A stretch of 64,000 bases of DNA from Cyanophora paradoxa CCMP329 (taxonomy: Eukaryota > Plantae > Glaucophyta): assembly GCA_004431415.1 (NCBI GenBank), contig QPMI01000511.1:62406-126405 (forward strand). Reading direction: 5' to 3'. Below, in pieces: positions 5,040 to 62,796 of the stretch. Each line of letters starts with the position of its first letter. Position 1 is the first letter of the stretch. Below the pieces are notes generated by a model that saw only the letters and a list, made by a program, of their open reading frames with translations, was not told the origin of the DNA and did no database searches. The position numbers and the translations under genes were made by a program.

Positions 5040-5078
<39 letters not shown>

Positions 5079-34052: not shown

Positions 34053-37000
34053 CTAGTCGTCGTCGAGGACAATATAATCGATGACGGTACCCTCCCGCGG
34101 CTCGCGTTGCGCTGCAGACAGATCAACCGCCATCGCAATCAGGAGCGTCAGACGCCGAATCTCAAGGCGCACCAGTGGTGTCTGCAGCTGCAGGGGGCGG
34201 TTGCGGGGAGGGTGTCGGCTGCGGGGGGGGCCCACTGCTGCTGGCACTAGAGCCTGACGCGGCCGATGCAGCTGCCCCCGTGGCCGATCCCGCTGTCGGA
34301 TGCTCCTCATCTCGATCGCGATCGGGAGACCGCGGGCGCTTCCTCGTGAGCGCGGCAGCAGGTGGCGGGCTGACACGTGCACCCGCAGCGACGGCTGCGT
34401 CCCCCTCGCCCCCTGCGAAGCGCTTTAGTCAGCGTACAAAGATTGCACAGAAGAGCGGAGACAGCTAGCGCTGTGACCTGCAGCTGGACTCTGCTGCGAC
34501 TTCTCCTCCGTGCGCACGCCGAGGCGCCTGAGGAGCGCGCGGCGCTCGTCCCGCAGGCGCCGCAGCTCCATCGCGCGGTTGCGCAGCACGCCCTTCTTCT
34601 CGTAGTACATGGCGCAGGGGCGGCAGACGCCGAGCTCCTTCGCGTCGCTCGGGTCCGCCCCCGCGATCTTGATCGAAACGAGCCGGTCGGGCGGCAGCGG
34701 CCGGCTGCATGCCTCGTTCTCGCACTTTGCCCCGCTGCGCTTGACATTAGCATCGCGGATCTGGATGTCGATCGCGTGTTCGTTTCACGCACTCGCGATG
34801 GGCCTCCTCTTTATCGTTCTCCTGCCCATACACGCTCTCGTTCTCGTTCGTGGTATCGTACAAGTCGTTCTTGAAGAATTCTTGCGCCATCAGGCTCCGG
34901 AAGGTCTCCCGCAGCTTCTGGACCTGCTCGGCGTGGACGGGAATGCCTGCCGCGTCCGAGAGGAATCCGTCCTCCTCCAACCGCTGGTACACGCTGATGC
35001 AGCTCTTCACGTTGCCGTAGAACAGGGCAGGGACAATGATCTGCGGTTACAGAGATTTCAGAAGTAGGAAAGGAATTTAAATTTTGGGGCGACCTCGCGA
35101 AGCTCCTGGTAGTGCTCGCTGCTGTAACTCTTTAGACGAGCAAACGCCTTGTGCACAGAATCCGCCAAGTCGAACTGCGCGGCGAGAGCTAATTTTTAGC
35201 ACGTATCCCCGGATATCGATTATGATGATGAACAGTGAGATTCTGTTGACCTGAAAATCTTCCGCGAAACCTTTGGCCACATCGTTGAGTACGCTAACCG
35301 CCTTGTCCCTGATAGATCCTCGAAACTTCGCAAGTTCCACGCTCCTTCCCAGCGCTTCCTCGCGCTCGCGTCCTCTCTGGTCAATGGGGTTTCAAATCTG
35401 TGAATAATTTTTCATTTCTAAAAAGCTATAAAGAGCACGAGCACGAGCAAGATAGAAGGCATCTAGATCTGCATGCGCGGCTGCTCGCGCGGCTGGCTTT
35501 GAAACGGACAGGTCCGCACCGGTTTCTTCAAGACGTGCGCGGCGAGACGGCGGAGGCTCTGGCAGATCTCCTCCCACACTTGCGAACGAAGCTCGGCCAT
35601 GTCGGGCGCGCTCTGCTCGAGCTTTGCGATGTAGCTCTGCACAACGTGATCCATGCTCGAGCTCAACTTCCTGCATGTACGTGCACGTGTTAGAAATGCT
35701 TTCATAATGTATTCTCTGAATAGTAATGCTTGAGGTGTACTTACTTGTGCTCGAAAGAGAGCAAGAGTCTGTATATGGAGCTCGTGGGAACTCTGCTGCC
35801 CGGATTCGGATCCAGCGGGTCTCCGTCAGTATCCGGATCCGTGGATGACATCAATGTCGATGCCTCCTCCATCTTTTTATAGAAGCCCGTCAGCAGTCTG
35901 AACTTCTCCTCCTTTGTTCTCGTGAAGAGTTCCTTGAGAGCATCGAAGACGATGCGAGCCGGCTCGACGGGGACGTAGGTGGCGAGCGGACCGAAGGCAA
36001 TGTCCACCAGTCTTGGATCGGGGTCCTCCGCCTTTTCGCTGCACGCCTTGAGCACAGAGCCGAACTCGCGCTCAGCGAGCATCATGGATTCCTTGTAGGC
36101 TTCCTGCGTTGAGCTGGAAGTCACGATAGAAGATTGCAATTGAAATCATGATATGCAGGGCATGCGCAATTCAAATGTACCAACGTTTCTTTCGCCCGCT
36201 CACTGGAGCAGAGCTCTGCGTACTCGTCGATTGTCTTCTCGGCCCGTTCAAGCGCCTTTCTGAGACTTTCATCCTGCAAGGCGCGATCACGGAAGTGCTT
36301 GAGCTTTCAATCTGGAACACGTTGCGCGTATGCGCACACACCCTCTCAAGATTGTTCAGTTTGAGGACCTTCTTCAGCTTTGCTGCCTTCTCGCTGCGTT
36401 TCCGGAGAAGCTTCACCGCTTCTTGTAGAGACAGCTGAGCCTCCTGGCATTCCCTGCCCGCCCTCAAATCCATGCCCATTTTGCACATCTGCAAATTCGG
36501 AAATTTTTAGTGAAACTCGCGATCAGGCGAATGAATTATTTATCAAATTTGGAAACAAACCTGATCAGAGAGCGCGGCGAAGGGCTCGACTGCATCTGCA
36601 AGGAGCGAAGTCGCGATGGCAGCACGCCGAGGCTTTGCCTGGAGCTGCTGGATGTCCTTCAGCTCCCTTGCCAGAGCGCCGAGGCCGTAGTGCTCGTCGT
36701 CCACCAGCCCGCCGACGACGCAAGTTGTGCGGAAGCGGAGGGCCCCTCTCTCATCGATCTCGCGTTGCTGCTGGTGCCGCTGAGCCTCGGCCGACCTCCA
36801 CCCATCGACGTCCCTCGCCGCTTTGTGTGCCGCCGCCGCCGCGTCGGGTCGCAGCAATCCAGAAATGCCTGGTACAAGCTGTGGAGAAGCGATGCCGAAA
36901 TGAAAATATTAATTCAAATGAGAGTGTGACCACGATTTGTTCAACGTCTCACCTCGGACTCGATGTTTGCAATCCGTTGCAGGGTCAGGGGCTCAGAGTT

Positions 37001-38424
37001 GCTCTGCTTCTTGAGCGCTGCTGTAAGCTGAGTTGCGAACACCTGAATTCGAAAGAGATCTTGTCAATGCAAGAAAACACAACACTAGTGCTAGTGCTAG
37101 AAGCTTAAGTATCCGGTTCGCCTGAAATCTGTTCTTGCGCAGTTTATGGTGCTCAGCAGCAATGGCGTTCGCTTTGGGCAAATTGATCGAATTCAACTCA
37201 AGCTTCCTCTTGTACTTCAAATGGTAATCCGCGTTCAGCCTGAAAGGAAAATACCGCGTCACGCATGCAAGTAAACGTAAACATGTTCGAGCATCGATAT
37301 CCAAAGAGTGCGCACAAAAATGTGGCTTTCAAGCCGTTTGGCTTTGTGAGGAAGCGGTTGAGAAGGCCCCCGGGAGCGAACAGCGTCATCCAGAAATCTT
37401 GCGGGATCGGCTGCATATAAATGCATCAATATATAGTGCAATGTTAGTATATCGAGTGTAATGTTTTACCAGTAAGCCAACAAGCAGGAAGATGTGCAAG
37501 TGCTCAAAAGTTTCTGCAAAGAGTTTCCGGATGACAGCCGAGCGATAGGAGTCTGAGATCGCAAATCTGTTCGAATTCGCGTAGGGCGTATGCATGTAAT
37601 TAAATATGATCATGAACCGGTATCAAAGCATAGGCTTCGTACCCAGGAACATCAACGAGAACGAGGCCTGCGAAAAATTCCAAAATCAGGATTTTCAACG
37701 CTGACTAGCTATAGCGCGGTTCTTGAATAATTGCGTTCGCGGGCCCCGCCTGTGGACCCACCTGACTCGAGCAGCGGGCAGGGGAGGAAGACGTCGACCT
37801 CGTCGAGGATGCTCCACTGGAGGAAGCGGCTGGGGCTTTCATCATCGTCGCCGTAGCTCGCCGCGTCGCCGGCGGTCGTCGCGAGCAGCAGGCGGTGGAG
37901 GAGGGCGAGGGCGGCGGGGAGGGGGCCCGGGAAGACGATCTGCCGGTGGAGGCCCAGGAACTGCAGGTGATCCCGCGGCAGTCTGAGCTGATCCGGGTCC
38001 ATCTGCATGATGAGCTCCGCGTTTTCGATAAGGCTCATGTTGCAGAGGTGACATGCTTCGTCCAGCGTTTCCCGGTCAACCTGCACGTGGGATCACAAGA
38101 GCATTAATATTGCCGCGAGCTATTTTGCATCAGCCGACAGCTGCTAGATATGCACACCTCCTTACTGCTGCTTTCACGGCACCCCACCAGCTCCGCGCGT
38201 GCCTTCTTGAGCCTTTCGTACACGTGGGAGGCACTTTTGTACTTGAAGACTACAGCAGCCTGCTTGCCATGCTTGATTCGTGTAACGACGGATGTTGTGA
38301 CTTGCGGCATCGCCGGCAACAGTAGGTCTCCGTTAGTTTGCTCCTGACTGGTTCATATATAAGTGGGCTCTTGCCAAAGGTCGAGCTCTCGAGCTTGCCC
38401 CTTCGCTGTCAATGCATTGTTAAC
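34053..38424 (-). pseudogene. Multi-exon dynamin-superfamily (Dynamin_N, SLIP-GC/bacterial dynamin-like) GTPase gene, 5'-truncated
   Basis: NNALTAK...LLLPAMPQVTTSVVTRIKHG (post-G1 and G2), VDVFLPCPLLES|GLVLVDVPG (G3), long helical C-terminal region. No GxxxxGKS upstream of NNAL. Confidence 0.62.
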
Positions 38425-38602: not shown

Positions 38603-39334
38603 TCACTGGCCGAAGTGCGACGGTCCCCACTCGAGGTCGGGGTCGGGCCTTGGGGGCCTCCGGCGGGGTACGATGCTCCCGCTTGCCAGCTCCATGTACT
38701 CCCCCACGGGGTTGTCTTCGTCTGCGAGGTCCTTATAGTTGCCCTTTACGAGATCCGCTGTCGCTTTGCGCCAGCGAACGGCCACGTTGTACGTGTTGTC
38801 GATGATGTTCTGCACTGTACCCTCCATGGGTGTTAGGGAAGGTGTGTAGTTGAGAAAGGCGAGGTCTCTCTCGCGCAGACTCAATTCCCTTTCGTAGTAC
38901 TCCACTGCGCTTGGGAGGGCCCTGAGCTCCACCGCGTGCTCGCCCGGGTCCGACGAGCTAATGAGCCCGGAGCGCTGCAGTGCGTCTACAGCCGCCCGCA
39001 GCACGATTTTGCCCACCCCCCGCATCGAATTCCTCTGCTCGGGCGTCCCGTATTCCCCCTGCGGCCCGTAATCGTTGTAGTAGCTTTCTATTTCGACGGT
39101 GGCTGGCTTATTGCCGACCTGAGGCTGAACAGAGCCGTACACCCATGCCATGGCGTCATTGTCCGCTGAGCGGGCTTTCTTGGAAGGGGGCGGCAGCACT
39201 TCGATTTTGAACTCCCTGGTCCGTCGGTTGACGAGTGTTTTTAGATTGAGGGGGAGGCGCGTATCCCCGAATTTATCAGGAAAGAGGCGGTGTAGCTTAA
39301 ACCACGCTTCCTGATCACCGTAGGTGTACGACAT
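38603..39334 (-). CDS. Viral GNAT-family acetyltransferase
   Basis: Motif A MRGVGKIVLRAAVDAL and motif B VELRALPSAVEYYERELSL. Intronless. Start MSYTYG chosen from the upstream motif. Confidence 0.65.
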   Translation of the reverse strand: MSYTYGDQEAWFKLHRLFPDKFGDTRLPLNLKTLVNRRTREFKIEVLPPPSKKARSADNDAMAWVYGSVQPQVGNKPATVEIESYYNDYGPQGEYGTPEQRNSMRGVGKIVLRAAVDALQRSGLISSSDPGEHAVELRALPSAVEYYERELSLRERDLAFLNYTPSLTPMEGTVQNIIDNTYNVAVRWRKATADLVKGNYKDLADEDNPVGEYMELASGSIVPRRRPPRPDPDLEWGPSHFGQ

Positions 39335-39390
39335 TTGCTCGCGGCTCGCTGAGAATTTATACCTGTACCCCCACTCCCGGTCGGGGTACC

Positions 39391-39969
39391 TCATTCGAGC
39401 CTCCTACGCTTCGCCTCCTTCTCTTCCGCTTCGCGTATGTACTGCTCCTGCCAGCGGGGGGGTAGCATCTCCAGGGGCATTGTGTAGTTCTCCTCGAGTG
39501 ATTCCTGCCAGGGTAGCAGGGGCCGCGGCATCTGACGATTGTAACTGTCGCGGATGTGGAAGTAATCGACTACCCAGTTACGGAACACCTCCAACGGTTG
39601 GTAGGGCTCGTTTGCCGTCGTCAGAGGCCGCTCGGCCGTCCACCACTTCTCGAAGATGAGCCGCTGAATCTCTTCTGGGAGGTGCGGTATCATGCTCTTC
39701 CGGCTCACGAATGCCATCCAGAGCTGTTTCAGTACGTTTATGATACCGTACTCCCCAAAGCCCCAGCGGTAGGGTCCGGCGGGCCGCATGTCCATGCTAT
39801 CCCCGAACGCGTTCATGGCCAAATAGAGATTCGGCTTCAGCTTGTTGTACGGAGGTACGTATCCATTGCGTTTGGCCCCCGTGTTCGCTCTTATCCAGGG
39901 GATCAAATCTCTAACGTTCTCCACCATTCCCTTCACCTCGTCCCTCGTTGTTAGCTCGGGGTATGACAT
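39391..39969 (-). CDS. Viral hypothetical protein with an F-box-like LPEEIQRLIF segment
   Basis: Intronless ORF starting MSYPEL, ordinary amino-acid composition, divergent from YqaJ. Confidence 0.65.
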   Translation of the reverse strand: MSYPELTTRDEVKGMVENVRDLIPWIRANTGAKRNGYVPPYNKLKPNLYLAMNAFGDSMDMRPAGPYRWGFGEYGIINVLKQLWMAFVSRKSMIPHLPEEIQRLIFEKWWTAERPLTTANEPYQPLEVFRNWVVDYFHIRDSYNRQMPRPLLPWQESLEENYTMPLEMLPPRWQEQYIREAEEKEAKRRRLE

Positions 39970-40012: not shown

Positions 40013-40648
40013 ATGGACCTACAACAGGGGAGCGCGGCGTGGCACGCTGCGCGCCGCGAAAAGCTAACCGCCTCGAACTTTGCCGCCGCGTGCGGCATCA
40101 ACCCGTGGAAATCCAGGGCCCGCCTCTGGGCGGAGCTGAGCGGGATCGCGGAGGAAAACAACTTTGACAACCCTGCCCTAACCTATGGGCATGACTATGA
40201 GCCCCTCGCGGTCTCTATCTACAAGGCACTGAACGATAACGTGGACATTCAACACACTGGACTGCACGAACACAAAGAAATGCCGTTCCTCGCCGGGAGC
40301 CCCGACGGACTGATAGGAAATGATAGGATTTTAGAGGTGAAATGCCCGTACAAGGGCGAACTTTATGATAGAGTTCCTACCTATTACATGCCTCAACTTC
40401 AGGGACTTCTGGACATCACGGGCCGCGAGTGGGCCGAACTTTTTTGCTTCACTCCTCTGCGCGTGCAAACGTGGTACGTCAGGCGCGACGAGAGGTACAT
40501 CGAGCTCATCAGGAAGTGCTTACATCTATTTTGGATGCACGTCAAGGAGGGTACGCCGCCCGAGCCCTACAGCGATCGAATGAAGTCAGAGAACCTCAGC
40601 GAGGAGCAGGCGGCGCTGCGCGAGTTTAAGTCGTACGCCCTCCTCTAG
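40013..40648 (+). CDS. YqaJ-like viral recombinase / lambda-exonuclease (PD-(D/E)XK)
   Basis: QGSAAWHAARREKLTAS, YGHDYEPLA, FLAGSPDGLI, LEVKCPY, YYMPQLQG. Confidence 0.93.
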   Translation: MDLQQGSAAWHAARREKLTASNFAAACGINPWKSRARLWAELSGIAEENNFDNPALTYGHDYEPLAVSIYKALNDNVDIQHTGLHEHKEMPFLAGSPDGLIGNDRILEVKCPYKGELYDRVPTYYMPQLQGLLDITGREWAELFCFTPLRVQTWYVRRDERYIELIRKCLHLFWMHVKEGTPPEPYSDRMKSENLSEEQAALREFKSYALL

Positions 40649-40734: not shown

Positions 40735-43711
40735 TCAGGCCCAGGCCGGGTAGGCGCGTCTGTAATGAATCAGACCGCGCAGGATTTGGTCGAGCTGCTC
40801 GGTGCAGGGGGGCGGGAAGGCGAGGCCGCGGAGGGCCATAGAGACGTAGCGGAAGGGGTGGGGGAGGCGGCCCCTGTTATCCCACATGGCGTCCACTATG
40901 GCGTTGTGGACGGTTTGCTCGGAGAGGGGACGGGCCTGCGCGCACCGTTTCAGGGCCCTCAGCAGCCCTCGAAGATGTTGGAGTTGGCGTGCACCAGGGG
41001 GAGGGAGGGCTGGGACGGCGGCGGCGAGCCCGGGGCCGAGCCCTGGGTGGCGAGGGCCTGCGAGGGCGCCGGCTCCAGCTCCATCTCGAAGACGCCGCCC
41101 TCGACGTCGACGGTCACGGGCGGCGAGGCCGGGATCGCGCCGGCCTGCTGCGTGGCGGGGACCTGAGCCGAGAAGTTCTCGAGCCGCCACTCGCGGCAGC
41201 CCTGGCACTCACCTGGACGAAGGCGGTGCGGTTGGCGACGGGCGGCGTCGGTAGGGCCTGCGTGGGGGCGTCACTTACAGAAGCCGAAGGCGCCGGCCTT
41301 GTGGGGCGGGGCGTCGGGGTCGCGGGGCGTGCTATAGGCCTCCGAGCCTTCCTCAGAGTCACTCACCGAGCTGAGAGGGTGCGGTGAGAAGAGGCCGAGG
41401 CGGGCCTTCTTGGCGGGCAGGAGGTGGGAGCCGTTGAGGGCGCAATCGGCGCGGTGGGCACACCTCTCTCCGTAGGTGGGGCAGAGGGCCGGGGCCGAGG
41501 GCGCCGGAGCCAAGGACGCCGGAGCCGAGGACGCCGGGGGCTGGAGGAGGCGGTGAGAGGGGCCGAGGAGGAGAGGAAGGGGGAAGGGCGCGGGCACCGG
41601 CGCCTCGACGTCCCAGTCCGCCAGCTCGGGGAGGCCGTGCTCGTCGAACGCCAGCGCGGGCCGCCCGCTGAAGCCGAACGGGGCGGGGGGCGAGAGCGCG
41701 TTGTCCCCGACGCCCCAGACGGCGCTGAACGCCGCATCGTCCCAGCGCGCCTCCGCCTCCGCCTGGCCCTCGTCCCTTGCCTCGTCCACCTCCTTGGCAG
41801 AGAGCGACCCGATCTTGATGATGGAGGCCTGGATCAGCACAAACTCGCGCTGGAAGAATTGGACGAGCGGGATGGTAACTGCGGGAGAGGGGGTGAGCGG
41901 GGAGAGCGCGGGGCGCAGGCCAAGGGCGGGGGCGCAGGCCAAGGGCGGGGGCGCAGGCCAAGGGCGGGGGCGCAGGCCAAGGGCGGGGCGGACGCACATT
42001 CGATGCCGTAGGCCACCTCCTTGATGTAGCGGCCCCGGCGGCCGATCTCCTTGGCCAGCATGCTGCACTCCTTGCGCGCCGGGTGGCCGTGGCCCCACTC
42101 CATGGCGATCATCGCCTTCGCCAGACGGACGCCCTCGATGTGCCACTCGTCCATCTCCGCCTCCAGCTTGGCGCAGATGCGCATCCAGAAGAAGACGCGC
42201 TTGAGCTTGTCGCGGTCGAATTCGGCGTCGCCGCTCTTGCTGCCCCAGTCGCGCAGGTCCGTCTCCTCCGCCTTCTTCACCTTCTCGTACCAGCACTTGA
42301 TCTTCTCCGCCTGGCGCTGGAACTCGTCCGCCCGCGCCGTGAGAACGTCCGACTCCTCCTGCGCTCCGAGGGCCCGGGTCAGGGAGGAGAGGCGGGCTAA
42401 GCGGGGCGGCGGCGGACCGTGTGCGAGAGCTCGCCGACGATCACGGAGATGGCCGCCGAGAGGATCTCACGGGCGCGGGCCGGCCCGTTTGGGTGGCCCT
42501 CGCGCAGAACCTCCTCCAGCTTCAGCACGGCCGTCCGCATGAGATCGCGGTGGCGCTGGCGGGTCTCGTCGCTCCGGCCCTGATCCACGAGAAGCTGGAG
42601 CTGGGGCCGCATGCCGGAGTCGCAGACGCTGGCGTACTTCCGAAGGGCCGCGCAGGAGAGCACCTTCTGCACGCTGACCAGCCAGTACGCGTAGCCCAGC
42701 GGGCTCTCCGCGCTCGGGTTCTCTCCGACCTGCGGACGCGACCTTAGCGCGCGCAGGGGCAGGGGAAAGGGGAAAGGGCGGGCTCTCGCGCACGTAAATG
42801 TCATCGGCGCAGGAGAGGAACATGTGATCAACGACGTCGAAGAAGCCGCCGGACGGGAGCGTGCCGACGCCGTGGTACGCGCCGTTGGTGGTCTCGCCGG
42901 CGCAGATGCCGGCCTGGACGGTGACGGTGTACTGCGAGGCCGGCGGCCCCTCCTTCACGTAGACGAAGTTGAGGTCGTACTTCTTGGCGTACGTCGGGTT
43001 GATGCGCTTGGTGACGATGACGTAATCGCACCGAACGCCGAGGCCGGACGGGCTGGCCTTCTCCTTCTCCGTCACCGACGCCAGGCACTGATCCCGCGCG
43101 ATCAAGAGCTGCGGCGGCCCGCGCGTGAGCAAGCGCGGGCACGCGAGCGCAGGGAAGGGCCCTCACCCCGTGGGCGCCGCCGCTGCCGGATTTGAGGTCC
43201 GCGAGGAACTCCTTCTGCTCCGGAGTGCCGGAGAAGATCGCGCGCGGATGGAAATCGCGATGGAGCGCGATGCTGTTGAAGCAGCCCGCCGCCGCATTGT
43301 CGGACATCAGCAACAGCGCCACATCGCCGTGCGTGAAGCCGTACTTCGCCTTCACATACTCCGGCAGCTCGTGAATGCTGTAAGGCACGATCTGCGCGCG
43401 GGGCACGCGAGCCGGGGCATGTGAGCCGGGGCCGAAGCGGTGCGGGCGAAACCGCGAACCTCGTTGAACTTATTAACCGGCGTGAACTGGCCCTTGGTCT
43501 TCAAGCGCTTCGGGTGGCCGTCCGTGTTCTGGATCTTCTTCAGCCCGCCGAACGGCTCGAAGCGCGGCACGCCGGCCGAGTTGAACACGCTATCGCAGGT
43601 CATCGCGTTGAGCGCCTCCTCCGCCGATAGGCTGCCGAGATCGCGGGCTATGCTGTCCTGCTCGCCGGGCTGCTGCTGCTTCGCGCAGGAGCGGAAGGTC
43701 GCCGCCTGCAT
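40735..43711 (-). CDS. Large intron-containing hypothetical protein within the provirus
   Basis: GT-AG introns 43392-43459, 43109-43166, 42730-42793, 42359-42417 and 41879-41997 join the ORF fragments in frame. 3' end is either 41271 or 40735. Confidence 0.7.
41911..41988. repeat. ~4 x 19-bp tandem repeat (GGGCGCAGGCCAAGGGCGG) inside an intron
   Basis: Read directly. Confidence 0.9.
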
Positions 43712-44016
43712 CGCGAGTGTTACTGCCCGCGATGTCTCAACGGATTCCGTTCAACGTCGTACCCCCGCTGGCTTGTTCCCTCCCCCAACTCGCAAAGACT
43801 CAGACTTGAAGCGCGCTCCCCCCCCCCCTCAAAATGCGTACCCCCCTTGGGCTCGAACCCCGGTCGGTTTCTCGCTTTTTTGACTGCCCAGTCCGGCGAT
43901 GCAATGCAGGCCGCTCGTTCAAATCGGCTGGGAACTTGGCGCCAGAACCTTCGCAGCGCGCGCAGCACTCCCAGCAGAGCGCGCGCAGCAGCGGCGGCAG
44001 CATCGGCGGCAGCAGC

Positions 44017-47000
44017 ATGTCTCGGCTCGCGCTCCCTCCGGAGATCCCGGCTAAGCTGGCGAGGAACACGCTGTACGACGTTCTCTGCGTCGGCGACAGC
44101 TTCGGCGTCGATTGGACGGTTTTCGAGGCCGGCATCAGCGACCAGGCAAAGGAGGCGCAGGCCCGGGCGCTGGAGGACGGCGTGCAGTTCAGCCCGAACA
44201 GCAAGGATGTGCTGCGCAAGACCGAGCTGGCCGAGCGCAAGCGCAAGCTGGCCGCGGCGCGGACCTTGAACCTCGAGGGCGCCCCCGGCCCGTCGGTGCA
44301 GTTCTCCATCGACTCCGTCCTGTCGCGGCTGCGGCTCGCGGAGGTGCTCGCTGCCTCTTTCTCTCTGCGCTCGCAGCGGCTGAGGCGCCGCGGCGCATCG
44401 CAGGACGCGGACGTGCGGGCGATGCACGCGGCGCTGAACATGACGGAGGAGAACTTCGACACGCCGAGCAAGCCGAAGCCCGGGCGCGATGCCGACGCCC
44501 GCCGGCTGTTCGCGGCGCAGCGCCTGCGGCTGCTCATGGGCGCCGTGCCCCGGCACCTCGCCAAGGGCGAGTGGCGTACGATTGGCCTGCTGGCGGGCCC
44601 GGAGGAGTTCTACTTCAACCGCATGGCGGAGGCGGCCCCGCACCTGCTCTGGCTGCTGGTGCTCAGCTCGGACCCGGCCTACACGCCCGAGGTGCGCCCC
44701 CGGCCCGCGCCGCCCGGCCGCCCCTCCCCGCCGACCCCCGCCGGCCCGCAGAGGCTGGCGAAGGGCATCATGGGCGTCGAGGCGCGCTGCATCATGCGGA
44801 ACAGCCGCGCGTTCATCACGCGCCACGAGAGCTCGGCGGTCTGGGGCGAGCGGCCGGACACCGGAGTCCTCACCGACGCCTACGCCATCCGCATCGTGCT
44901 GGAGGCGGCCTGCCGGACGTGCCGGGACCGCCACGGGCGCCAGGGCATCTGCGCCTTCGACCTGGTTCCTGAGTTCGAGGTGCCCGGCGTCACCATCGGC
45001 GACCGCGTGCAGGTGCGCCGTTTCTATTTGGATGCTATTTAGATGCTATTTAGACTATTTAGATGCCATTTAAACCCCCTCGCAGGTCATCCGCCGGTGC
45101 TCGATGCCGGACTCGCACGGGCGGCCCATGATCCACGGCGCCGTGAAGTTCATCACTGAATTCGCACACACCGAGACAGTACAGCTAGTGATGTAACTGG
45201 GGTGTCTGACTGTGTCATGTCGAAAGGTAACAATTTAGGCTAAGGCGCAATGCTAGCCATCAGAAACCGGACAGGGTGGAGCTATTGTACTGAGGAAAGC
45301 GACCTACACACACCTAGCAACGCTACTTACTCCTACCTAGAGAGCCAAATCAGGACAGAGCAACCATAACCCCCCCTCAAGACGTGGGAGCCTACAGGAG
45401 AGAACCCAGGTATAAGCAAGGATATGGGGTTGGAGCCGCGCAGCCTGAACTATAGCCCTCCATCTGATAGGGAAGATGCGCACTAAGGGAGCAAAACCAG
45501 CTAACCCCAGGGAGGGCCGGAAACCGGAGCCCGTGAGAGCCCGGGTGAAAACCGGCGGGCGCACAGCATCGCCGGCCGAAGCCGGCGACCTGTGCTCCTC
45601 GGCCGAGAGATACCTCCTCCAGCTGGCGCGCGTGCGCACGCGGAATCCGCTGCGGCGGGGGTTGGGAGGCCCCGGGCCGCCCGAGTGCTCAGAAGCACGT
45701 CGCCTCGCCAGGAATCCAAGCATCTGTGCGGCAGCGACGCCCACGGCCGCGACGCGGGCGTGCACTCACACGACCGACGATCATCTGCGCGGGCGCAGCA
45801 CAGGTCGCCGGCCCCATAGCCGCGGGCGGCCGATCGTTGCCGCAGAGAAGTGCTTGGGCTGAACGAGAGAGCAGCTGCTGAAGCCGCCGCTGGTGTCCGC
45901 TGGAGTGGCTCGCCGAACCGACCCACGGAGCGGATTCCTAACGGACGCGCGGCTAACCGGCTAGAGGAGGGGTGGAGGCACCGCCAAGGTGATTCGCGGC
46001 AGCCGGAGAGGCGCCCAGCGGGCAGGAGCCCGCCACCTACTTTCTCTCCAGGTCGGGGTACGCGAATCTGCGGCGCCGTGAAGTACGTGGTGCCGCGGCG
46101 CACCCTCGCCCTCACCTTCTTCGTCCCCGTCTTCGACAAGGCGGCCGCCGCCGCCGCCGCCGCCGCCTCCCGCCCCCGCCCCATGCTCGCGGCCGCGGAG
46201 TCCTCGGATTCCGACTCGGATTCCGAGGCGGAGCGCGAGGCCGAGGCCGCCGCCGCGGCCCGGGCGCTGGACTTCACGGAGGAGGAGCTGGAGCGGGCGC
46301 GGAGCCTGCCGCGCGCCGGCCAGGCGATGGCGGCGGCCTTCCAGGCGGCGATCGGCGAGGCGACGGCCTCCGCCTCGGGCGCCCGGGCCGGCGGCAGCAA
46401 GATCACGGCGGAGGGCCTCGCGCGCGCCATGCGCGTGGCCCAGGCCCAGGCCCAGGCGAAGGGCAAGGGCAAGGGCAAGGCCGCCTACATCGACCTGCGG
46501 TTCGAGGAGGAGGAGGCGGGTGCCCCGGCGGCGCGGCGCGATCTCGGCGAGGAGATGGAGGCGGCGGCCCCCCAGCCGACCGGTGCGCCCTCCCCGCCCC
46601 TAATTTCTGAGCCTAGGGCGTTCCAGAGGCGCCAAGGAATGACCCTGCCCTCAGAGGAGGAGCTGGAGGCCGAGCGCGCGATGGAGGAGGAGGCCGCGCT
46701 GGCGGCGGCGGCGGACGCGAAGGCCTCGCGCGAGCTGGAGGTGGCGGAGGAGTACGCGATGGAGCTGGAGCGCGAGCGCGAGCGCGAGGGCGAGCCCGAT
46801 GCGGAGCTGGCGGCGACGGTGGAGGCGGGGGCGGGGGACACCTTCGAGCCCGAGCCCCCCGTCGACGAGTTCTACCCCCTCCCGCCCTCCCCCTCCCTCG
46901 ACGGCGCCCCGCCGCCGCCCATCGAGGAGTTCTCGGACGACGAGCCCGGCGACGCCGGCCCCAGGCCGCCCTCGTCTCCCCCGCCGCCCGCCCGCCCCCG

Positions 47001-50000
47001 TGCCCCCCGCCAGCCCCGCCGCCTCCGACGTCTCCTGGCGCCCGAGCGGCAACCCCTCGGCCTTCAGTCCCTTCCGCCCTCGCAGCCCTCGCAGCGCCCG
47101 CCGCCCTCCGTCCAGGGTACCCCCTCGCCCGCCCCATCCCCTCGCCGCCGCGGGGCACGCCCGTCGCCACGCCCGCCTCCTCCCTCGGCCACATGCCCCT
47201 CCGCCCCTCCGGCCCCCGCGCCGGCCGCCTCTCCCGCCGGGCCCAGCAGCGGCGCGAGCGCGAGCGGCAGCTGCTGCGCGATCAGCGGGCGGAGGCGGAG
47301 GCGGACCACGACGACGGCCAGGCGTCGGAGAGCGACGGCGAGCCGCCGCGCGCCACCAGGCTGGAGCTGGCGCGGGCGGAGCTGGCGGCGCAGCCGCGCG
47401 AGGCGCCCGAGATCGACATGTCCAAGTACGACGACGTGACAACGTACAGCAAGGACAACAAGTCCAAGAAGGAGGCGGCCATTCAGGATGCGCTCCGCCT
47501 CTTCGTCAAGAACAACGTGCGCCCCGCCCCCTTAGCTGCGCGCCCCGCCCCTTAGAGGCCGGAGGCGGCCGTGGCCCAGCTGCTTAAGGCGCTGGGCCCG
47601 AGCCGCCTTCGGCCGGTGCGCCCCCCTCCCGCGTTCGAACCCCGCTAACCCCCTTTTGCCGGCGCAGCGGATCGTGCGCCAGAGACCCTACGGCCCGAAC
47701 TCCCCGCCCACCTTCTACGTCGAGCTCCCGAACCTCTTCGTGTACGACAAGGTCAGCGCGAACAGGCACGCCGGGCGCGGGACGATGAAGGAGGTCATCC
47801 AGCTGCTGGCGATGACCTTCCACAAGACCTACGAGTCCAACCCGGCTCCTTCGAGTTCACCTTCTCGAAGGAGGTGCTCTCGGGGCGGACGCGCACGTTC
47901 GTGGAGGAGTCCCTCCAGCTCGAGGACGTCTGCCCGAGATGCCCGTCATCCCCGGCTTCGCCTTCGCCTGCGACACGCGTGCGCCGCCCGTACCCCTGCG
48001 CCCCGCCCGTACCCCCGCCGACGCCCCTTGCGCAGATTTCGTGGTGCGGGCGCCGCAGGACAGCACGGGCAGCGCCTGCGTCCTCGTCATGACGCACGAG
48101 GAGGCACGGGAGCGGTACGCGGGCTACATGAACACCTGCTACATCCAGGGGCGCCTGCCCGCGGGCATCGAGGAGGCGACCGAGACCTGCGACTGGCCCA
48201 CCGTGTACGGCATGCTGCACCCCTTCATGCCCAACGTCGTCAAGCACCTGGCGGACAACGGCTACGTGACGGCCGACGAGTTCGGCTACGCGGCGGCCGT
48301 CCTCTACGCCTTCAACCTCGTCGGGCCGTGGAACTTCTGCGACAAGCCCGTCTTCGACCGGGAGCCGCGCGCGGAGATGGAGCCGCCGTCCGAGGGCGCC
48401 ATGCTGCAGTACTGCGGCATCATCAAGGGCCAGTCGGGCACGGGTGCGCCCCGCCCCCGCCATTCCCTCTTCCTTTTCCTGAGACCCCGCGTGCGCAGGC
48501 AAGTCGATGGTGACGCAGATCATGACGGAGTGCCTGCCGCCAAGCCGCGTCTGCGTCTACCGCCCCTCCAAGGGCTCGGCCTTCTCGGAGCACGGCGGCG
48601 AGGAGGCGATCTGCATGGTGATGGCGGAGGGCCTCGACCCGCGGGCCTGCTCGGAGGAGGAGCTCAAGATGCGCTCCGGCGACGCCTACTCCCGCAACTT
48701 CAAGAACGTCCGCGGCGACGATGTGCGCACCAAGGCGACGCGCAAGGTGCTTGTCATCGTCTGCAACAGCTTCCCGCAGGTGCGCCCGTTCCCTTCCCTC
48801 CTTCTCCCGGCGCCCTTTCTCACCTGCCCCGGCGCAGCTCGAGAACCGCATGCTCGAGTTCTTCGCCCGCGTCGTCCTCATCCCCCTCGACCACAAGCCG
48901 GCCAAGAAGCGCACCTACCTCCACTCCGACATCCGCGAGAACGAGCTGCCGGCGCTCATGGTCGCGGCCTTCACCTTCGCCTGGAAGATCATCCACGCGC
49001 TCTCCGACGGCAAGGCCTCCTGCATCCAGGCCTTCGAGCCGGCGTGGCTGCGGGCGCAGCGCCTCGGCTTCTGGCAGGAGACGACCAAGTGCCCCCTCAC
49101 CCGCTTCATCGTCACCCACTGCGCCGTCGACCCCACCACCTACGTCGCCGCCCCGAACACGGAGGGCTGGATGACGAGCGTCGCGGGCATCGTCGAGTAC
49201 ATCGCGCGCACGGAGGGCCCCGACACCTCCGCCGCCGTCGGCGCCGACATCGAGAACGGCCGGCTGGACGAGACCCTCGCCGGCTTCGGCTCCTCGTGCC
49301 GCCTCTACTCCTACAAGCTCGGCGGCATCTGGCAGACCTACATCCGCGGCATCGTCCCCAAGGCCCCGCTCTCCCTCGGCGAGAGCCAGCCGGCGCTGGA
49401 GGCGATCGCGATCCCCGTCGCCCAGTTCAAGGACCCGGTGGCCGACGTCGGGCCCTTCCTCGTCCAGCCCCACACCAAGGGCAAGGGCAAGCGCACCCGC
49501 AACTCGGCGCCGGCCTTCCTCCCGCCCCAGCCCCCCGCCACGGCCCCCCAGCAGCGCCCCGGCCAGCAGCGCATCGACGAGATGCTGCCGCGCCAGGTCC
49601 GGCCCCGCGTACCCCCCGCCTTCCCTCCCGTACCCCCCCTCCCCCCGCCCCCCTCCTGATCCAAGGGCAGGGTACCCCGACGAACGGCGGCGCGGGCCCG
49701 AGCGGCTACGGGAGCTCGGCCTCCTCCGCGAGCGCCGACGGCCCCAGCCCCGTCCCCGGCCCCAGCGCCGTCCTCTCCGCGATCCAGGGCTTCGGGGCCC
49801 AGCAGGAGGCGGAGCGGCAGGCGCTGGCGGCGCGCCAGGCGCGCGAGGCGGAGGAGCGGCGCCAGGGCCTCTGGGCCCGGCGCATGCAGGAGACCGCCGC
49901 CTTCCGCGCCGAGCTGGAGGCGGGCTTCCGCGCGAAGCGGATGAGCGCGGCGGAGGCCGTGGAGAGCTGGCGGGCGTTCGAGGACGGGACCGTGGAGCTG

Positions 50001-50162
50001 GCGAAGGGCCTCGGCTACAGCTACCGACGGGCGCCGGTGCCCACCTCGTACGCAAGGCGGGCGGCGCGGGAGGCCTCGCGGGCGGAGATCGACGCGGCGG
50101 AGGAGCAGGCGGCGCGCGAGGAGGCCGAGGACAACGCGCGCTTCCGGCACCTGCACCACTGA
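44017..50162 (+). CDS. Large intron-containing viral replication protein: unknown N-domain, acidic/Pro linker, D5-like SF3 helicase; interrupted by an insertion
   Basis: Walker A IIKGQSGTG|KS is restored by intron 48444-48498. Walker B-like CMVMAE, motif C VIVCNSFP, Arg-finger FFARVVLI. Other introns: 44692-44751, 45013-45085, 47517-47667, 48780-48837, 49597-49670. Confidence 0.8.
45150..46070. mobile_element. 921-bp non-coding insertion (non-autonomous retroposon-like) with a 14-bp target-site duplication
   Basis: CGGCGCCGTGAAGT at 45136-45149 and 46071-46084. Removing the insert and one copy restores ...PMIHGAVK|YVVPRRTL... Confidence 0.85.
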
Positions 50163-50211
50163 GGCCCCGAGGCGGTATTTTTTCTCAACCCTCCCTCAAT
50201 TCGGTCCCGCG

Positions 50212-50400
50212 ATGGCCTTCGAAGCTTATCCCGCCCACTACTCGCTAGGAGCGCTGGCTGCGACCCTCACCTGGCTCCTCGGCGGCACCCCCACGGCCTC
50301 GGCGGTCATCGGCGTGGGCTTCGGCTATGCCGCCAAGTCCCTCTACGCCCCCGGCTCCGCCTCGCAGGCCGCGGCCGGCATGCGCCCCGCCGGGCGCTAA
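50212..50400 (+). CDS. Small hydrophobic viral protein
   Basis: 62 aa, two hydrophobic segments, upstream TTTTCTCAAC motif. Confidence 0.55.
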   Translation: MAFEAYPAHYSLGALAATLTWLLGGTPTASAVIGVGFGYAAKSLYAPGSASQAAAGMRPAGR

Positions 50401-50511
50401 CTCTCCCTTTTCAAAGTTTTCCCAAGTTCATTCTCCCCTCCCCCTTTTCCGAGTTCCGAGTCCGTTGGCGTTCCCTTTTAAATTTTCTTCATTCTCGTTA
50501 CACGTTCGAAG

Positions 50512-50990
50512 ATGTCGAGCGCGGTAGAGAAGCTGCTGTGCACCGTGTTCAAATCGGATTCGCGATGCAGCAAGATTGGCGAGGCGGCGAGGGCTAAGGG
50601 CGGGGCGGCGGCGGAGGGGCCCAGGGTGAAGGCGGCGGATCCCGCGCCGCCGTCGCTGAAAACGATCAAGGGGGCGGGCAAGGGCAGGAGCGTGGGGGCG
50701 CTGCCCCTCGTGGCGATCGCGCCGGGGCAGAGGGAGGCGGCGCACGCGGCGACGGCGGCGCTGGCCGCGCGGCGCCAGGCGGAGGCCTACCCGTGCCTGG
50801 GCCAGGGGCTGCACCCGCCGGCCGGCCGCCCTACGCCGTGAGCGCCTACTTCGACGAGGCCAACCGGCTGAGCTGCCAGGAGCTGTGCGACAACCGCATG
50901 CGGCGCGCCGTGGACGGGCACCTGCCGCTGCTGGTGGCGCTGGGCGGCTCGCTCCTGATGGTCTGGTACCTGCGCGGCCTGGTCATTTAG
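50512..50990 (+). CDS. Viral hypothetical protein with a C-terminal TM (frameshifted)
   Basis: ORFs 50512-50841 and 50793-50990 chain; ends LPLLVALGGSLLMVWYLRGLVI. Confidence 0.5.
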
Positions 50991-51027
50991 ATAGTTTTTC
51001 GAAACCCCGGTTGGAAGCTAGCCAAGG

Positions 51028-51353
51028 ATGAGCTGGCTCGATGCGCTGCTCACGAAGACCTTCGGCCCAAGGGCCAGCCGCGCCTGCAGTTCGGCGAGAT
51101 CAACGCGGCGATCGGCGCCACGGTGGAGACGAAGAACCGAGAGAACGTCCTGCGCGGCGACGGAGGCGCGTGGGCCGACATTGCGGCGGGCGCCCTGGGC
51201 TCCGCGCTCACCGCACCGGGCAAGGCGGGCCGCGCGCTGACGGACGGGGCCGAGCGCTTCTGGCACTGGCTCAAGGTGGCCGTTGTCATCGCCGCAGCGG
51301 TTGTGGCGGGTCTCCTGGTGCTCGAGGCTCGCGCGCTATTTTCTAAACGCTAG
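51028..51353 (+). CDS. Small viral membrane protein (frameshift near 5' end)
   Basis: MSWLDALLTKTFG ... FWHWLKVAVVIAAAVVAGLLVL. Confidence 0.55.
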
Positions 51354-51369
51354 GTAAACTGAGCGAACC

Positions 51370-51747
51370 ATGCCCCGCGGCGGCTCTTCCCCCCGTGTTT
51401 CCTTCGCTGAGAACCCAGTGGCGAACGCAGCGGACGGTACCCCCCTGGAGCCCGGAGTGAAGCTGGAGCGTGCGAACGCAGTCTCCGTCAAGAAGGCCAA
51501 GCGCACGCTGGCGCTGGAAGTCCCGGTCGCGGAGGATACGGAGAAGGTTGCATTCAACAAGCGCAAGACGTACAAGGCGATACGCGAGGGACAGCTGCTG
51601 CCCACGGACTCGGTTCCCGGGCTGCCGGGCACCACGGCCGGCGAGCTCCTAGTGCGCAACCTGCGCCTGCAGTACGTCTCCCGCCTCCGCCGCTCCAAGG
51701 CCAAGAAGGCGCGCCTGGACCCGGGCGATAGCAGCTCTAGCTCGTAG
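51370..51747 (+). CDS. Basic viral hypothetical protein
   Basis: 125 aa, K/R-rich, upstream TTTTCTAAACGCTA. Confidence 0.6.
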   Translation: MPRGGSSPRVSFAENPVANAADGTPLEPGVKLERANAVSVKKAKRTLALEVPVAEDTEKVAFNKRKTYKAIREGQLLPTDSVPGLPGTTAGELLVRNLRLQYVSRLRRSKAKKARLDPGDSSSSS

Positions 51748-51774
51748 GGCTCTGTACTGTTGTATTCAATGCCT

Positions 51775-52058
51775 TTACCAGTTCCTGTTCCTATCCCAGA
51801 GCACGACTCGGGTGAAGGGCACGGTCATAGCGAACATGAACTCGGCGAACTTTGCAAAGTTCATCAGGGTTCCAGGCGGGGATCCTCCCAGTAGATCGCC
51901 TCGCGCAGCGCCTCGTAGACGCGCATGAGGGAGCGCTCGTTCTCCGTCGCGAAGGCGTCGCCGGGCTCGTCGGGGTCGGGATCCGTGAGCTCGGAGTACT
52001 CGTCCGAGCTGCCCGCGCTCTCGGCACCTGCGGCGGGGTCGGGCGAGGGGTCGGGCAT
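51775..52058 (-). CDS. Small acidic viral hypothetical protein (frameshifted)
   Basis: MPDPSP...EAIYWEDP joins TLMNFAKFAEFMF... Confidence 0.5.
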
Positions 52059-52106
52059 TCTTTGCTGGTAGAAGGGCTAGAAGAGGGACCAGAAAATCAC
52101 TAGCAA

Positions 52107-52448
52107 TCACGGGCGCCGGAACTCCATCGAGTCGCCGCGCCAGTACTTGTTGCCGGAGGCGAGCAGCTTCATCGGCTCGCCCGTCGAATCGTGCTTCCAG
52201 GCCTCGCCGTCCCAGAGGGCCGTGCCGCCGTCCTCTAGCTTGAGGCGGTGGCCCGGCTCGAGACGGTTGCCGTCGAGCATGCGGCCGGCCATGAGCGCCA
52301 GGTCCCACTCGGTGAGGTTGCGCTGCTCTGCGGGGGTGAGGCCGCGCTCGACGCGCTCGGGCTGGCGCGCCTCGCGCTCCATGCGGCTGAGGCCTACCAG
52401 GAAGAAGATGGGCAGGGCAAAGGCCATGAGATCTAGCAGGGCCTCCAT
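52107..52448 (-). CDS. Viral hypothetical protein with an N-terminal hydrophobic segment
   Basis: MEALLDLMAFALPIFFLVGL...; upstream TTTTCTAAG. Confidence 0.6.
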   Translation of the reverse strand: MEALLDLMAFALPIFFLVGLSRMEREARQPERVERGLTPAEQRNLTEWDLALMAGRMLDGNRLEPGHRLKLEDGGTALWDGEAWKHDSTGEPMKLLASGNKYWRGDSMEFRRP

Positions 52449-52458
52449 TGGGAAAGAC

Positions 52459-52752
52459 TTAGAAAAGGTTCCGGACCAGGCCCGAGAGCTGCGGGCCCAG
52501 GCGCCGGGCGGCGTAGTAGAGCGCGGCCGCCGCCGCCGCAAGGATGAGCAGGCGCGGCGGGCCGCGCGCCGGCTCCTCCAGCGTCAGGTCCACGGTCTCC
52601 GGCCCGCGCGCCGGAGCCGCCAGGATCTCGGGCTCGGAGCAGAGGGACTTGGGCCCGCGGCGGCGGCGCTGCTTGGGCGCCGAGGCGGCGGCGGCGGCGG
52701 TGAGAAGGTCCTCAGGCTCCTGCTTGATACCTGCGCAGTCAGTAAAGTCCAT
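52459..52752 (-). CDS. Small viral protein with a C-terminal TM
   Basis: MDFTDCAGIKQEPED...LLILAAAAAALYYAARR. Confidence 0.55.
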   Translation of the reverse strand: MDFTDCAGIKQEPEDLLTAAAAASAPKQRRRRGPKSLCSEPEILAAPARGPETVDLTLEEPARGPPRLLILAAAAAALYYAARRLGPQLSGLVRNLF

Positions 52753-52804: not shown

Positions 52805-54340
52805 AGGAGGGGGGAGAAGTGACGCGGACGCAAAAGATTCCGTCATGGGTTTTTCCGTCATGGGCTGGAACTTGGACTCGGGACTCGGCCGGGAATTCTC
52901 CTGGTAAGTTCGAGACTTGAACTCGGCGGGGTAACCCCTATGTCCTAGTGTCCTAGTGTCCCAGAGTCCTAGTGTCCTAGTGTCCTAGTGTCCTAGAGTC
53001 CTAGTAGTACTAAGTAGGTGGTATCGATATCTAGCTAGCTAGCGCTAGCGCTTGCTTAATTAATTAACTGAAAGGTTGCGGAGGTTGCGGACGCGTCACA
53101 ATTCCGTCATGGGTTTTCCGTCATGGGCTGGAACTTGGACTCGGGACTCGGCCGGGAATTCTCCTGGTAAGTTCGAGACTTGAACAAGAACGACGTACCC
53201 CTCCTATGACCGTTCTATACTACATTAAAGTATTCATTGATTGTGAATAACGATAATGTCATAGCAACTTCAGTATGATGTCATAGCAACTTGAAATTAC
53301 CTTCAAGTCGAATAGAGGGGTACAGAGTCGGTACGTTAGACTTGACAAAACACGTGTATTTTTTTACGCCGAGTTTTGCGGCCGAGTCCCGAGTCCAAGT
53401 TCCAGCCATGACGGAAAACCCATGACGGAATTGTGACGCGTCCGCAACCTCCGCAACCTTTCAGGTAAATGTCAGGTAACTTCAGGTTAATTAATTAAGC
53501 AAGCGCTAGCAAGCACTAGCTAGATATCACAGCTCTACCTTGCCCAAGTTGATGGTATCTAGCAAGGCCTGCTCCTCCAAGTCTGCACCACCGCCGCTCC
53601 AGCGCTAGCGCTAGCTCGATACCGCCTCCGGCTTGATCTCCCTTGGCTCCAGCCACCTGAGAGGCTCAGGCCACCTCCTCTGGTGAAGCCGGTATCGTTG
53701 CTCTTGTCCAGCTTGAGGTAGCGGTAGGGCGCCGGCGCCGGCCAGTCCGGCCTGTGGCCGCTTGCCTCCTTGGCTATGTCCTTGGGCCTACGCGGACGCA
53801 GGTCGGCCTTGGCCTTCGCCCTCTGCAGGGGGCCCAGCGCCTTGAACTTCGGTGCCTTGGTCGCCGGCAGGGCCTTGGGCTGGGGCTTCTGGGGCTTCTG
53901 CGTCTTCACCGCCTTGGGCTTCGGCATCCTTGGCTGCTTCGATTTCGGCATACTTCTTGCTCATAAATGAGAAAAGCGCCTCAAAGTCTGCCTTTATCTC
54001 CTCCTTGGACCAGGATGTCACCTGATCCGGGTCACCTGAGAACGGCGCATCGAACGCCACGTGGAGCGATTTGCAGGCCTGGGCAATCATTGGCTCGGGC
54101 CATGCCAGCTCGATCAGCTGAAGGTAGATGTTGAGGGCCTTGTCGAGCTTGGCGCCCTGGGAGACCAGCTGGGAGATGGCGGGCTCCATGGTGGGTAGAC
54201 TAGCATCAGAAATGGCGCCAAGTTCGAATCTATTTTTTTACCGGGAGAGTTTGGCCCGAGTCCCAGGTCCAAGTTCCAGCCCATGACGGAAAAACCCATG
54301 ACGGAATCTTTCGCGTCCGCGTCACTTCTCCCCCCCTCCT
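52805..54340. repeat. Nested inverted/direct repeat hub with TTCCGTCATGG iterons
   Basis: Outer IR 52805-52889 / ~54253-54340. Inner IR 53026-53154 / 53379-53528. Direct repeat 52837-52922 / 53101-53185. (GTCCTAGT)n at 52941-53005. Confidence 0.92.
53559..54189 (-). CDS. Viral hypothetical protein inside the repeat hub; C-terminus acidic (stop 53788) or K-rich (stop 53559) depending on frame
   Basis: Overlapping ORFs 53788-54189 and 53559-53951. Confidence 0.5.
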
Positions 54341-55395: not shown

Positions 55396-55417
55396 TCGCA
55401 CACTAAGCTCAGACAAC

Positions 55418-56213
55418 ATGGCCACCGTCCGCAACGCCAACGAGATCGACCCGCCAAGCTCGCCTTCGAGATCGACGCCACCGCCGCATCAAGGCCAAGT
55501 ACGACGGCCTGCAGGGCCTCATGATGTACGCGCCGCCCATGGTCACCATCAACCCTGCATCAACACAGAGCAAGGCAAGGCGTGGAGCGACGAGAAGAAG
55601 GCCTTCGTCATGGAAGAAAACGGCGGATTCTACACGCTGGACCTCACCGATCTCAGCGCCGTCGACGGCCAGACGAACCCGCCGCGGACGAGTTCCTCAA
55701 GCTGCTCGAGGCCCTGGACGCGAAATTCTGCGAGTTCGTGCAGCAGAACCAGGCCAAGCTCAAGGTCTCGCCCGGCCGCTCCCTCTCCAAGGACCAGATC
55801 TCGGTGCTGCAGACCCCCAGCGTGCGCATCAAGGTCGACAAGGAGTCGGGCCAGGCCTTCTACAAGTACCTCAACATGCGCATCCGCACCCAGACGATGG
55901 CGGGCAAGCGCAAGACCATCCCCGTCGTCGACATGTCCAACTACCTCATCACCGAGCGCGCCACCATCGCACCGGCGACCTGGTGGCCGCCCTCGTCAAA
56001 ATCGACACCGCCTACGCCATCCCCGAGGGCAAGTTCGGCCTCAAGTGGTCCTTCCTCGCCGTGCAGCAGTGCAAGGTCGGCGCCTTTCGCTTCGCAGGCC
56101 GCACGCCCGAGCTGGCCTTCAGGCCCTACGACAACGAGGCCAGCTTCGAGCCCTACCTAAACCCGAGTCTATGTACACAGCCCCATGCAGTAGCTCGGAC
56201 GAATAAATTGTGA
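55418..56213 (+). CDS. gp2.5-like OB-fold single-stranded DNA-binding protein (NCLDV/mriyavirus type), frameshifted
   Basis: FYTLDL, DEFLKLLEALDAKFCEFV, YLNMRIR, GDLVAALVKIDTAY..GKFGLKWSFLAVQ. Confidence 0.7.
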
Positions 56214-56246
56214 ATTTTTGGTGCAATTGATTACACGCGTTTACAC

Positions 56247-57038: not shown

Positions 57039-57054
57039 CCTTTACGCCTGCCCC

Positions 57055-58512: not shown

Positions 58513-58589
58513 CGCGCCTCGGTTAGGATCCCAGTGGAAAATTTATTGGTTCACATCGGCCTACCAGCACACCCTGGCTAACAAGCAAT

Positions 58590-59938: not shown

Positions 59939-59984
59939 GGTGGTTTAGGGGTGCGTTGAGAAAATTTTTTGGGTGGGCCTACGT

Positions 59985-62183: not shown

Positions 62184-62189
62184 GTTTAC

Positions 62190-62522: not shown

Positions 62523-62533
62523 GGGGTACGGGG

Positions 62534-62793: not shown

Positions 62794-62796
62794 TTC

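Follow-up and report, generated by a model that had tools for sequence, protein, structure and literature searches.

Mriyaviruses carry phage-like superfamily 3 (SF3) helicases and are without RNA or DNA polymerases, and the main text of the paper that defines them leaves introns, integration and endogenous forms unmentioned (10.1101/2024.02.29.582850). Their major capsid proteins (MCPs) were reported to need structure prediction (PMC13768754), and a Mriyaviricetes region has been reported in a glaucophyte assembly, with introns unconsidered, in a paper whose figure or supplements may show the locus described here (10.1101/2025.04.19.649669). In punuivirus, a latent giant virus of Chlamydomonas reinhardtii, intron-rich latency genes stand beside promoter-driven virion genes (10.64898/2026.10.09.758095); one spliced skiavirus gene has been described (10.64898/2026.07.28.741200), and introns limited to early genes have been proposed for the intron-poor demutoviruses and pandoraviruses (PMC12768974). 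Why some nuclear DNA viruses of protists are intron-rich and others intron-poor has been called an open question, with the proposal that persistent infection keeps splicing available and nucleus-destroying infection does not (10.64898/2026.08.29.747986). The genes of the glaucophyte Cyanophora paradoxa average 9.2 introns with a mean length of 86 bp, according to a source whose available text contains neither 'virus' nor 'viral' (PMC6704402). Our literature search, which took in few subscription papers, found no report of spliceosomal introns in mriyaviruses or in viral elements of Cyanophora. Here we analyse 64,000 nt of C. paradoxa CCMP329 DNA (contig QPMI01000511.1, positions 62,406 to 126,405; hereafter the window), part of which is occupied by a gene-dense element that is likely a mriyavirus-like integrated DNA virus, judged by its motifs and the published report rather than by a passed profile test. 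Two adjacent, divergent genes of this element, A and B, are spliced; within coding sequence the introns are confined to these two genes, and they are common to many copies of the element.

Genes A and B together contain 18 GT-AG introns, nine in each, where a first-pass annotation made from the letters alone had noted at least 11 short ones in two divergent genes. Their layout is as follows.

40735 to 43711, minus strand: gene A, 10 exons, 772 amino acids (aa), without assignable family
43712 to 44016: 305-bp spacer from which A and B diverge, without the T-rich motif (see below) before either start
44017 to 50162, plus strand: gene B, about 1500 aa, predicted SF3 helicase in the C-terminal half
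43459-43392, 43166-43109, 42793-42730, 42417-42359 and 41997-41879, minus strand: gene A introns 1 to 5
41597-41541, 41366-41258, 41212-41148 and 40994-40936, minus strand: gene A introns 6 to 9
44344-44403, 44692-44751, 45013-45085, 46583-46654 and 47517-47667, plus strand: gene B introns 1 to 5
47979-48035, 48444-48498, 48780-48837 and 49597-49670, plus strand: gene B introns 6 to 9

The introns of gene A (start ATG at 43711, stop at 40735) measure 57-119 nt, and once they are removed the frame is open and identical, letter for letter, to the 772-aa EukProt model P0024. Those of gene B (start ATG at 44017, stop at 50162) measure 55-151 nt, and its exons fall in order on the sister protein P0007. 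Donors begin with GTGCG or GTCCG in 11 of the 18 introns and acceptors end in GCAG in 16. Compared within the window, the 18 show no full-length match to one another and so do not form one introner family; with host introns of the window they share only short donor or C-rich matches. The gene A intron at 41997-41879 holds a 19-nt tandem repeat, and a 58-nt imperfect inverted repeat at 47557-47614, within the gene B intron 47517-47667, is possibly a small inserted element. A splice-site matrix trained on the 18 introns (its 20 matches in A and B are circular and were not counted) found 22 sites in host genes (17.0 kb; shuffled sequence gave 6.4), which makes the A/B splice signals host-like, in agreement with the earlier claim. 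The same scan found three weak sites in 14.4 kb of other element genes, against 4.9 in shuffles.

Runs X1 and X14 are DNA, and X15, X17 and X19, from three studies, were treated as RNA for carrying GT-AG joints that the DNA runs lack; X14 is regarded as genomic because its contigs keep neighbouring introns. Junctions at the A/B introns, the evidence by which the first-pass annotation proposed to check its claim, are present as GT-AG joints in contigs of all three studies. Among the joints listed, five of the nine gene A introns are joined in all three RNA-type runs, the corresponding joints having depth 0 in X1, and one X17 contig bridges a sixth; one of the remaining three lies under RNA of a different allele and two fall outside the joints listed. 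In gene B, RNA contigs bridge 47979-48035 and 49597-49670, the former being read through by DNA contigs; at three further introns the contig pieces end at the exon edge, and three are outside the joints listed. At least 8 of the 18 introns (six in A, two in B) are thereby cleanly spliced among these joints.

The genes to the right of A and B behave differently. These include:

55418 to 56213, plus strand: presumed single-stranded DNA-binding protein (SSB), intronless, with single-base gaps in the assembly
56247 to 58512, minus strand: intronless gene block, the last gene being DUF5767 (Pfam E=1.2e-13)
58590 to 59938, minus strand: presumed MCP, intronless, with single-base gaps in the assembly
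60000 to 64000, minus strand: intronless open reading frames (ORFs) and zinc-ribbon genes, with a presumed RuvC/A22-like resolvase at the window edge

We presume the first of these to be a T7-type SSB from a motif (Pfam blank) and the MCP to be of the double-jelly-roll kind from C-terminal motifs of nucleocytoplasmic large DNA viruses, which profiles did not confirm; its frame-broken fragments have no match in Pfam, PHROGs or the PDB. The resolvase at 64000-63600 is likewise presumed from acidic motifs, with Pfam blank on the fragments. A 'VLTF3-like' label for 57991-58368 was dropped for want of a Pfam match. One X15 RNA contig, 58520-59941, is colinear with the presumed MCP gene and has no intron-size gaps, and RNA contigs are also colinear over 56219-58098 and over the presumed SSB (55415-56239); two weak splice-scan matches inside the presumed MCP were rejected, as the RNA contig reads through both. 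The claim that the other viral genes are without introns is thus borne out by the scan and by unspliced RNA, including at the MCP and SSB, where introns would have spoken against it. Most of 60-64 kb and of 38.6-39.7 kb has no RNA contig, and 'intronless' there means by the scan alone. Contigs over the presumed MCP are nearly absent from X17 and X19, and X15 has one, a weak hint of conditional expression in runs that were chosen for holding A and B.

Five RNA-only introns do lie outside the two genes, all of them outside coding frames, in RNA that reads through into, or runs antisense across, intronless neighbours. Read-through from gene A, antisense to the adjoining YqaJ gene, is spliced at 40718-40567 and 40523-40457 (RNA-only CT..AC joints), minus-strand RNA across plus-strand small ORFs is spliced at 51211-51150 and 51053-50979, and the fifth follows gene B.

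50175 to 50248, plus strand: intron in the 3' read-through of gene B, with a GT..AG joint in all three RNA runs and none in DNA run X14

This last intron takes out the T-rich motif and the start codon of the next small gene. All three RNA-type runs show transcription of 50372-52113, where introns lie on the minus strand; this stretch may be the long 3' end of a small acidic gene starting at 52058, and possibly a third latent-phase transcript.

One intron of gene B is polymorphic.

48444 to 48498, plus strand: 55-nt intron within the Walker A codons, present in this copy and absent from some genomic copies

Unspliced, the Walker A frame reads GQSGTGAP, and in spliced models GQSGTGKS; removal of the intron does restore the motif in this copy, as first proposed, but some genomic copies do without the intron. 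In DNA run X14, position 48440 is followed directly by 48496 in a contig of 259 nt, and the same joint occurs in DNA run X1 and RNA run X15; its presence in X14 and X1 means that some copies lack the intron. In the allele without it, the end of the exon has a single synonymous base difference. From contig distances, the X17 and X19 contigs appear to use the exact splice of the allele found in this copy. Contig depth gives neither the share of copies without the intron nor the direction, gain or loss, of the change. Because copies differ in whether they have this intron, we regard intron turnover as ongoing. Sister copies free of introns, which the first-pass annotation had named as a sign of later gain in the host, thus exist for the Walker A intron, in X1 and X14, but were not seen for five gene A introns, whose joints have depth 0 in X1.

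The element belongs to a large family. Gene A occurs on at least 25 named contigs and gene B on at least 25, on 18 contigs the two are at most three gene numbers apart, and 40 contigs are named when YqaJ and a 113-aa neighbour are added; homologs of the A and B genes carry EukProt labels for Cyanophora paradoxa. Seven of the 18 introns are read through by DNA contigs of high depth, so most copies share them. Most B copies are 96-100% alike, and in one subfamily the helicase region is only 61-76% identical; P0014, of this divergent subfamily, appears to keep the intron at the 47517 position. The EukProt models P0013, P0014 and P0017 are mosaics, with an N-terminus 96% identical and a helicase region 61-76% identical, which suggests recombination between two related elements. 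When P0002 was searched against 1.84 billion representatives, 24 matches were returned, all at least 44% identical, and all six looked up were Cyanophora. Of the listed differences among YqaJ copies, 11 of 14 fall at third codon positions. GC content at third codon positions is 0.97-1.0 in A and B versus 0.93-0.96 in the right-hand genes, and DNA contig depth is 728-833 on B, with 759-1081 on three of the four right-hand genes listed and 352 on one. The copy in the window carries an insertion of its own.

45150 to 46084: 935-bp insertion in exon 4 of gene B, with a 14-nt target-site duplication, absent from sister copies

The joint 45135/46071 (14-nt overlap) is found in all four runs, and sister proteins read through the insertion site. 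The inserted sequence is a multi-copy repeat whose summed depth in the RNA-type runs is very high, and it has no match elsewhere in the window and none in Rfam; it is likely a retroposed element, and because of it this copy is probably defective for B.

Gene B consists of an N-terminal domain without assigned identity, a long acidic and proline-rich linker, the helicase and a helical tail. The region of its Walker A, Walker B and motif C aligns with a phage DUF5906 helicase (hhalign probability 82.8 over 110 columns), a comparison that arose from a weak tblastn match (E=0.04), and Pfam gives weak matches to RNA_helicase (whole model) and AAA_22. On these sequence features the C-terminal half of gene B is a predicted SF3 helicase. 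Gene A has no Pfam or PDB match and no assignable family, and its predicted fold (predicted local distance difference test, pLDDT, 30.8) is unusable, so that Foldseek output from it is meaningless; the same holds for the first 874 aa of B (pLDDT 32.8), where profile searches were also without match. In the N-terminal domain of B, M-I-H lies in a predicted strand, with no second His or YxxK (model pLDDT 33). Two early readings, gene A as a UL9-like helicase remnant and the N-terminus of B as an HUH domain, received no support from profile searches. The first-pass description of a viral replication module therefore stands for B alone, A having no family, structure or homolog to place it there.

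Of 26 intronless starts, 16 have a T-rich motif 20-45 nt upstream, and A and B both lack it; the motif occurs in 3.9% of random windows (P about 1e-16, for a pattern picked by eye from the same genes). The motif tracks starts, because it also precedes 39969 and 52752, where no same-strand gene ends just upstream, and A and B are flanked by YqaJ and by small genes that have it. By its placement it would be a viral promoter, and the 305-bp spacer is presumed to act as a bidirectional host-type promoter.

The remaining parts of the element are listed here.

38603 to 39969, minus strand: two ORFans (263 aa and 192 aa), intronless, on the left side of the element
40013 to 40648, plus strand: YqaJ-like PD-(D/E)XK nuclease, intronless (Pfam YqaJ E=1.4e-28)
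50212 to 52752, four on the plus and three on the minus strand: seven small ORFs, intronless
52805 to 54340: repeat region, with a 55-100 nt repeat present four times in orientations that alternate, and a tandem array of 8-nt units

The element spans from about 38.5 kb to the window edge and runs on past 64000, so that it is seen over about 25.5 kb (38.5-64 kb) before the edge cuts it. The left ORFans are in fewer copies (DNA contig depth 430 versus about 2500-2700 on gene A); the YqaJ gene is multi-copy and adjoins gene A on other contigs. A 113-aa gene at 52107-52448 has 15 EukProt variants, and 8 of 14 named contigs carry it near A or B. The repeats at 52805-54340 have a doubled 9-nt core and a hairpin-like centre near 53290 and make up a candidate origin or terminal-repeat junction (joined genome ends); at another locus the sister gene model P0100 covers this region. 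No DNA or RNA polymerase was seen in the 25.5 kb, Rfam gave no match in 33-64 kb, and a Pfam HUH search had no match in 55 frames of 53.4-64 kb nor in A and B. Single-base gaps are numerous in element genes of this assembly and look like assembly errors, because DNA and RNA contigs have extra letters there in the rows listed.

The window around the element is GC-rich, intron-dense eukaryotic DNA. Just to the left, at 34050-38330, lies a minus-strand, lower-GC gene with AT-rich introns, in which we presume dynamin-like motifs (no Pfam match); if it belongs to the element, a third element gene has introns. A retrotransposon at 13800-23000 has a reverse transcriptase (Pfam RVT_1 E=6.7e-9), after which come an apparent RNase H and an apparent tyrosine recombinase; it looks DIRS/Ngaro-like, and a repeat occurs near 13860 and again near 22800. 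An intron-rich host gene at 1137-9250, presumably an adenylate cyclase with an ATPase and a TPR-like region, has several GC-AG introns.

We interpret the locus, with a confidence modestly above even, as a temperate mriyavirus-like element in which A and B form a spliced latent or early module transcribed by host RNA polymerase II and the virion genes are unspliced and driven by a viral promoter. On this interpretation, transcription of A and B would take place on the integrated copy while the nucleus is intact, which would expose them to host-type intron gain and might let them rely on the spliceosome available there; their introns would have been gained through long residence in this host. 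Virion genes would be expressed rarely, in a productive phase, from the T-rich promoter and without splicing; as splicing is likely uncoupled or shut down in that phase, introns in them would be selected against. We envision that the introns were inherited as the element spread, rather than acquired copy by copy, with turnover continuing. Splicing, sharing among copies, confinement to A and B and an unspliced presumed MCP and SSB together make independent random gain at each integration unlikely, as the first-pass annotation had argued from the confinement to two genes. A stronger version seems doubtful when taken whole: an infectious temperate glaucophyte mriyavirus that packs a genome with all 18 introns in a divergent two-gene switch, makes its helicase only in an intact nucleus and its promoter-driven virion proteins from unspliced RNA, and shows in its Walker A intron a gain or loss caught in progress among copies.

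Several observations weigh against the temperate-virus interpretation. The names MCP, SSB and RuvC rest on motifs, and profile searches were blank; within the window, whose edge truncates the element, neither an HUH endonuclease nor a packaging ATPase nor VLTF2/3 was found, and no integrase was identified. No homolog of A or B was found outside Cyanophora. Exact-peptide scans of viral contigs and metagenomes revealed no free relative, which falls short of showing absence; they yielded one YqaJ locus of 28% identity (L001), and loci L002-L005 were rejected as matches to out-of-frame residues. Gene B exon differences show no third-position bias (5 of 16 listed), some copies lack the Walker A intron, only 8 of the 18 introns are cleanly spliced among the joints listed, and contigs are silent on strand, level and timing. 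In C. paradoxa, viral insertions are reported to be methylated and mostly silent (PMC12344493).

These points can be set against other histories. In one of them, which we hold unlikely, a mobile element that was not viral and had adapted to the host (a transposon or replicon with an SF3 helicase) fused with the virus and contributed A and B, the introns being its legacy; A and B would then serve replication or integration of the virus, and their introns would be uninformative on viral phases. Such an origin would suit two long, low-complexity genes with no relatives beyond the 24 matches at 44% identity or more, without the T-rich motif that most other genes have, in a window where no canonical HUH gene or integrase was found. 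It sits less easily with the embedding of A and B among motif-bearing genes, with a codon style like that of the capsid block and a similar DNA depth, and a C-terminal phage-like SF3 helicase behind a domain of no assigned identity is the layout described for mriyaviruses.

Quite unlikely, too, is an old provirus that gained introns in two host-transcribed genes and then multiplied without ever making particles, its other genes being silenced passengers. The polymorphic Walker A intron and the retroelement-like insertion in B would be expected of such a family, its introns do resemble the C-rich, low-complexity introns of the host, no free relative was found, and the host methylates viral insertions. 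Yet in one study an unspliced RNA contig covers the presumed MCP gene from end to end. The frameshifts resemble errors of assembly, the T-rich motif has been preserved, most of the listed YqaJ differences fall at third positions, and helicase alleles of 61-76% identity are mixed among copies. That the introns are an artefact of an error-rich, GC-rich assembly we consider highly improbable: single-base gaps are many, and 10 of the 18 introns have no clean bridge among the joints listed, but exact GT-AG joints, seen in RNA from three studies and missing from DNA, refute an artefact for eight introns, and the open 772-aa frame of gene A equals an independent gene model.

If the temperate-virus interpretation is correct, intron-filled and intron-free states would coexist within one small genome, in a cultured alga, and the at least 25 copies could serve to date intron gain and loss. 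Gene calling blind to introns would overlook the helicase in viruses of this kind, and many gene models attributed to the Cyanophora host would be viral.

Membership in the Mriyaviricetes is likely. Like Yaraviridae and 'Gamadviridae' of that class, the element is small and gene-dense, with no polymerase seen, a PD-(D/E)XK nuclease, a predicted C-terminal phage-type SF3 helicase, and an MCP, SSB and RuvC presumed from motifs. Mriyaviricetes genomes measure 35-45 kb, and the element, seen over about 25.5 kb, continues past the window; it has 18 introns in two genes and is integrated in at least 25 copies, features that the defining paper leaves unmentioned. Yaravirus showed no promoter motif, whereas this element has the T-rich one, and the Yaravirus factory takes the place of the nucleus (10.1101/2020.01.28.923185).

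Chloroviruses (PBCV-1) have no viral RNA polymerase, an early nuclear phase and introns in replication and repair genes, and their pdg intron is present or absent between isolates, as the Walker A intron is between copies here; they differ in having one intron per gene and in being large, lytic and not integrated (PMC7019647). Mirusviruses resemble the element as nuclear protist viruses with short GT-AG introns and turnover between close relatives, but belong to another realm (HK97 capsid), and their intron-rich orders concentrate introns in virion genes, the reverse of the present pattern (PMC12768974). Punuivirus, an integrated virus, shows the same division, with host-style introns enriched in its latency genes and a viral promoter motif on its virion genes, functions that are assigned here by inference. 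Punuivirus is 617 kb, with introns in 61 of 506 genes at 2.5 per gene, a statistical enrichment, and its particles have been shown (10.64898/2026.10.09.758095); the present element, described from genes and RNA alone, is much smaller and multi-copy, with nine introns per gene and an all-or-none split. The pairing of spliced latent or early genes with virion genes poor in introns is already in print, for punuivirus, chloroviruses and demutoviruses. What is new is the all-or-none split in a small mriyavirus-like element, together with two adjacent genes as dense in introns as those of the host, a candidate promoter motif, a large family of copies in a glaucophyte and an intron polymorphism inside Walker A.

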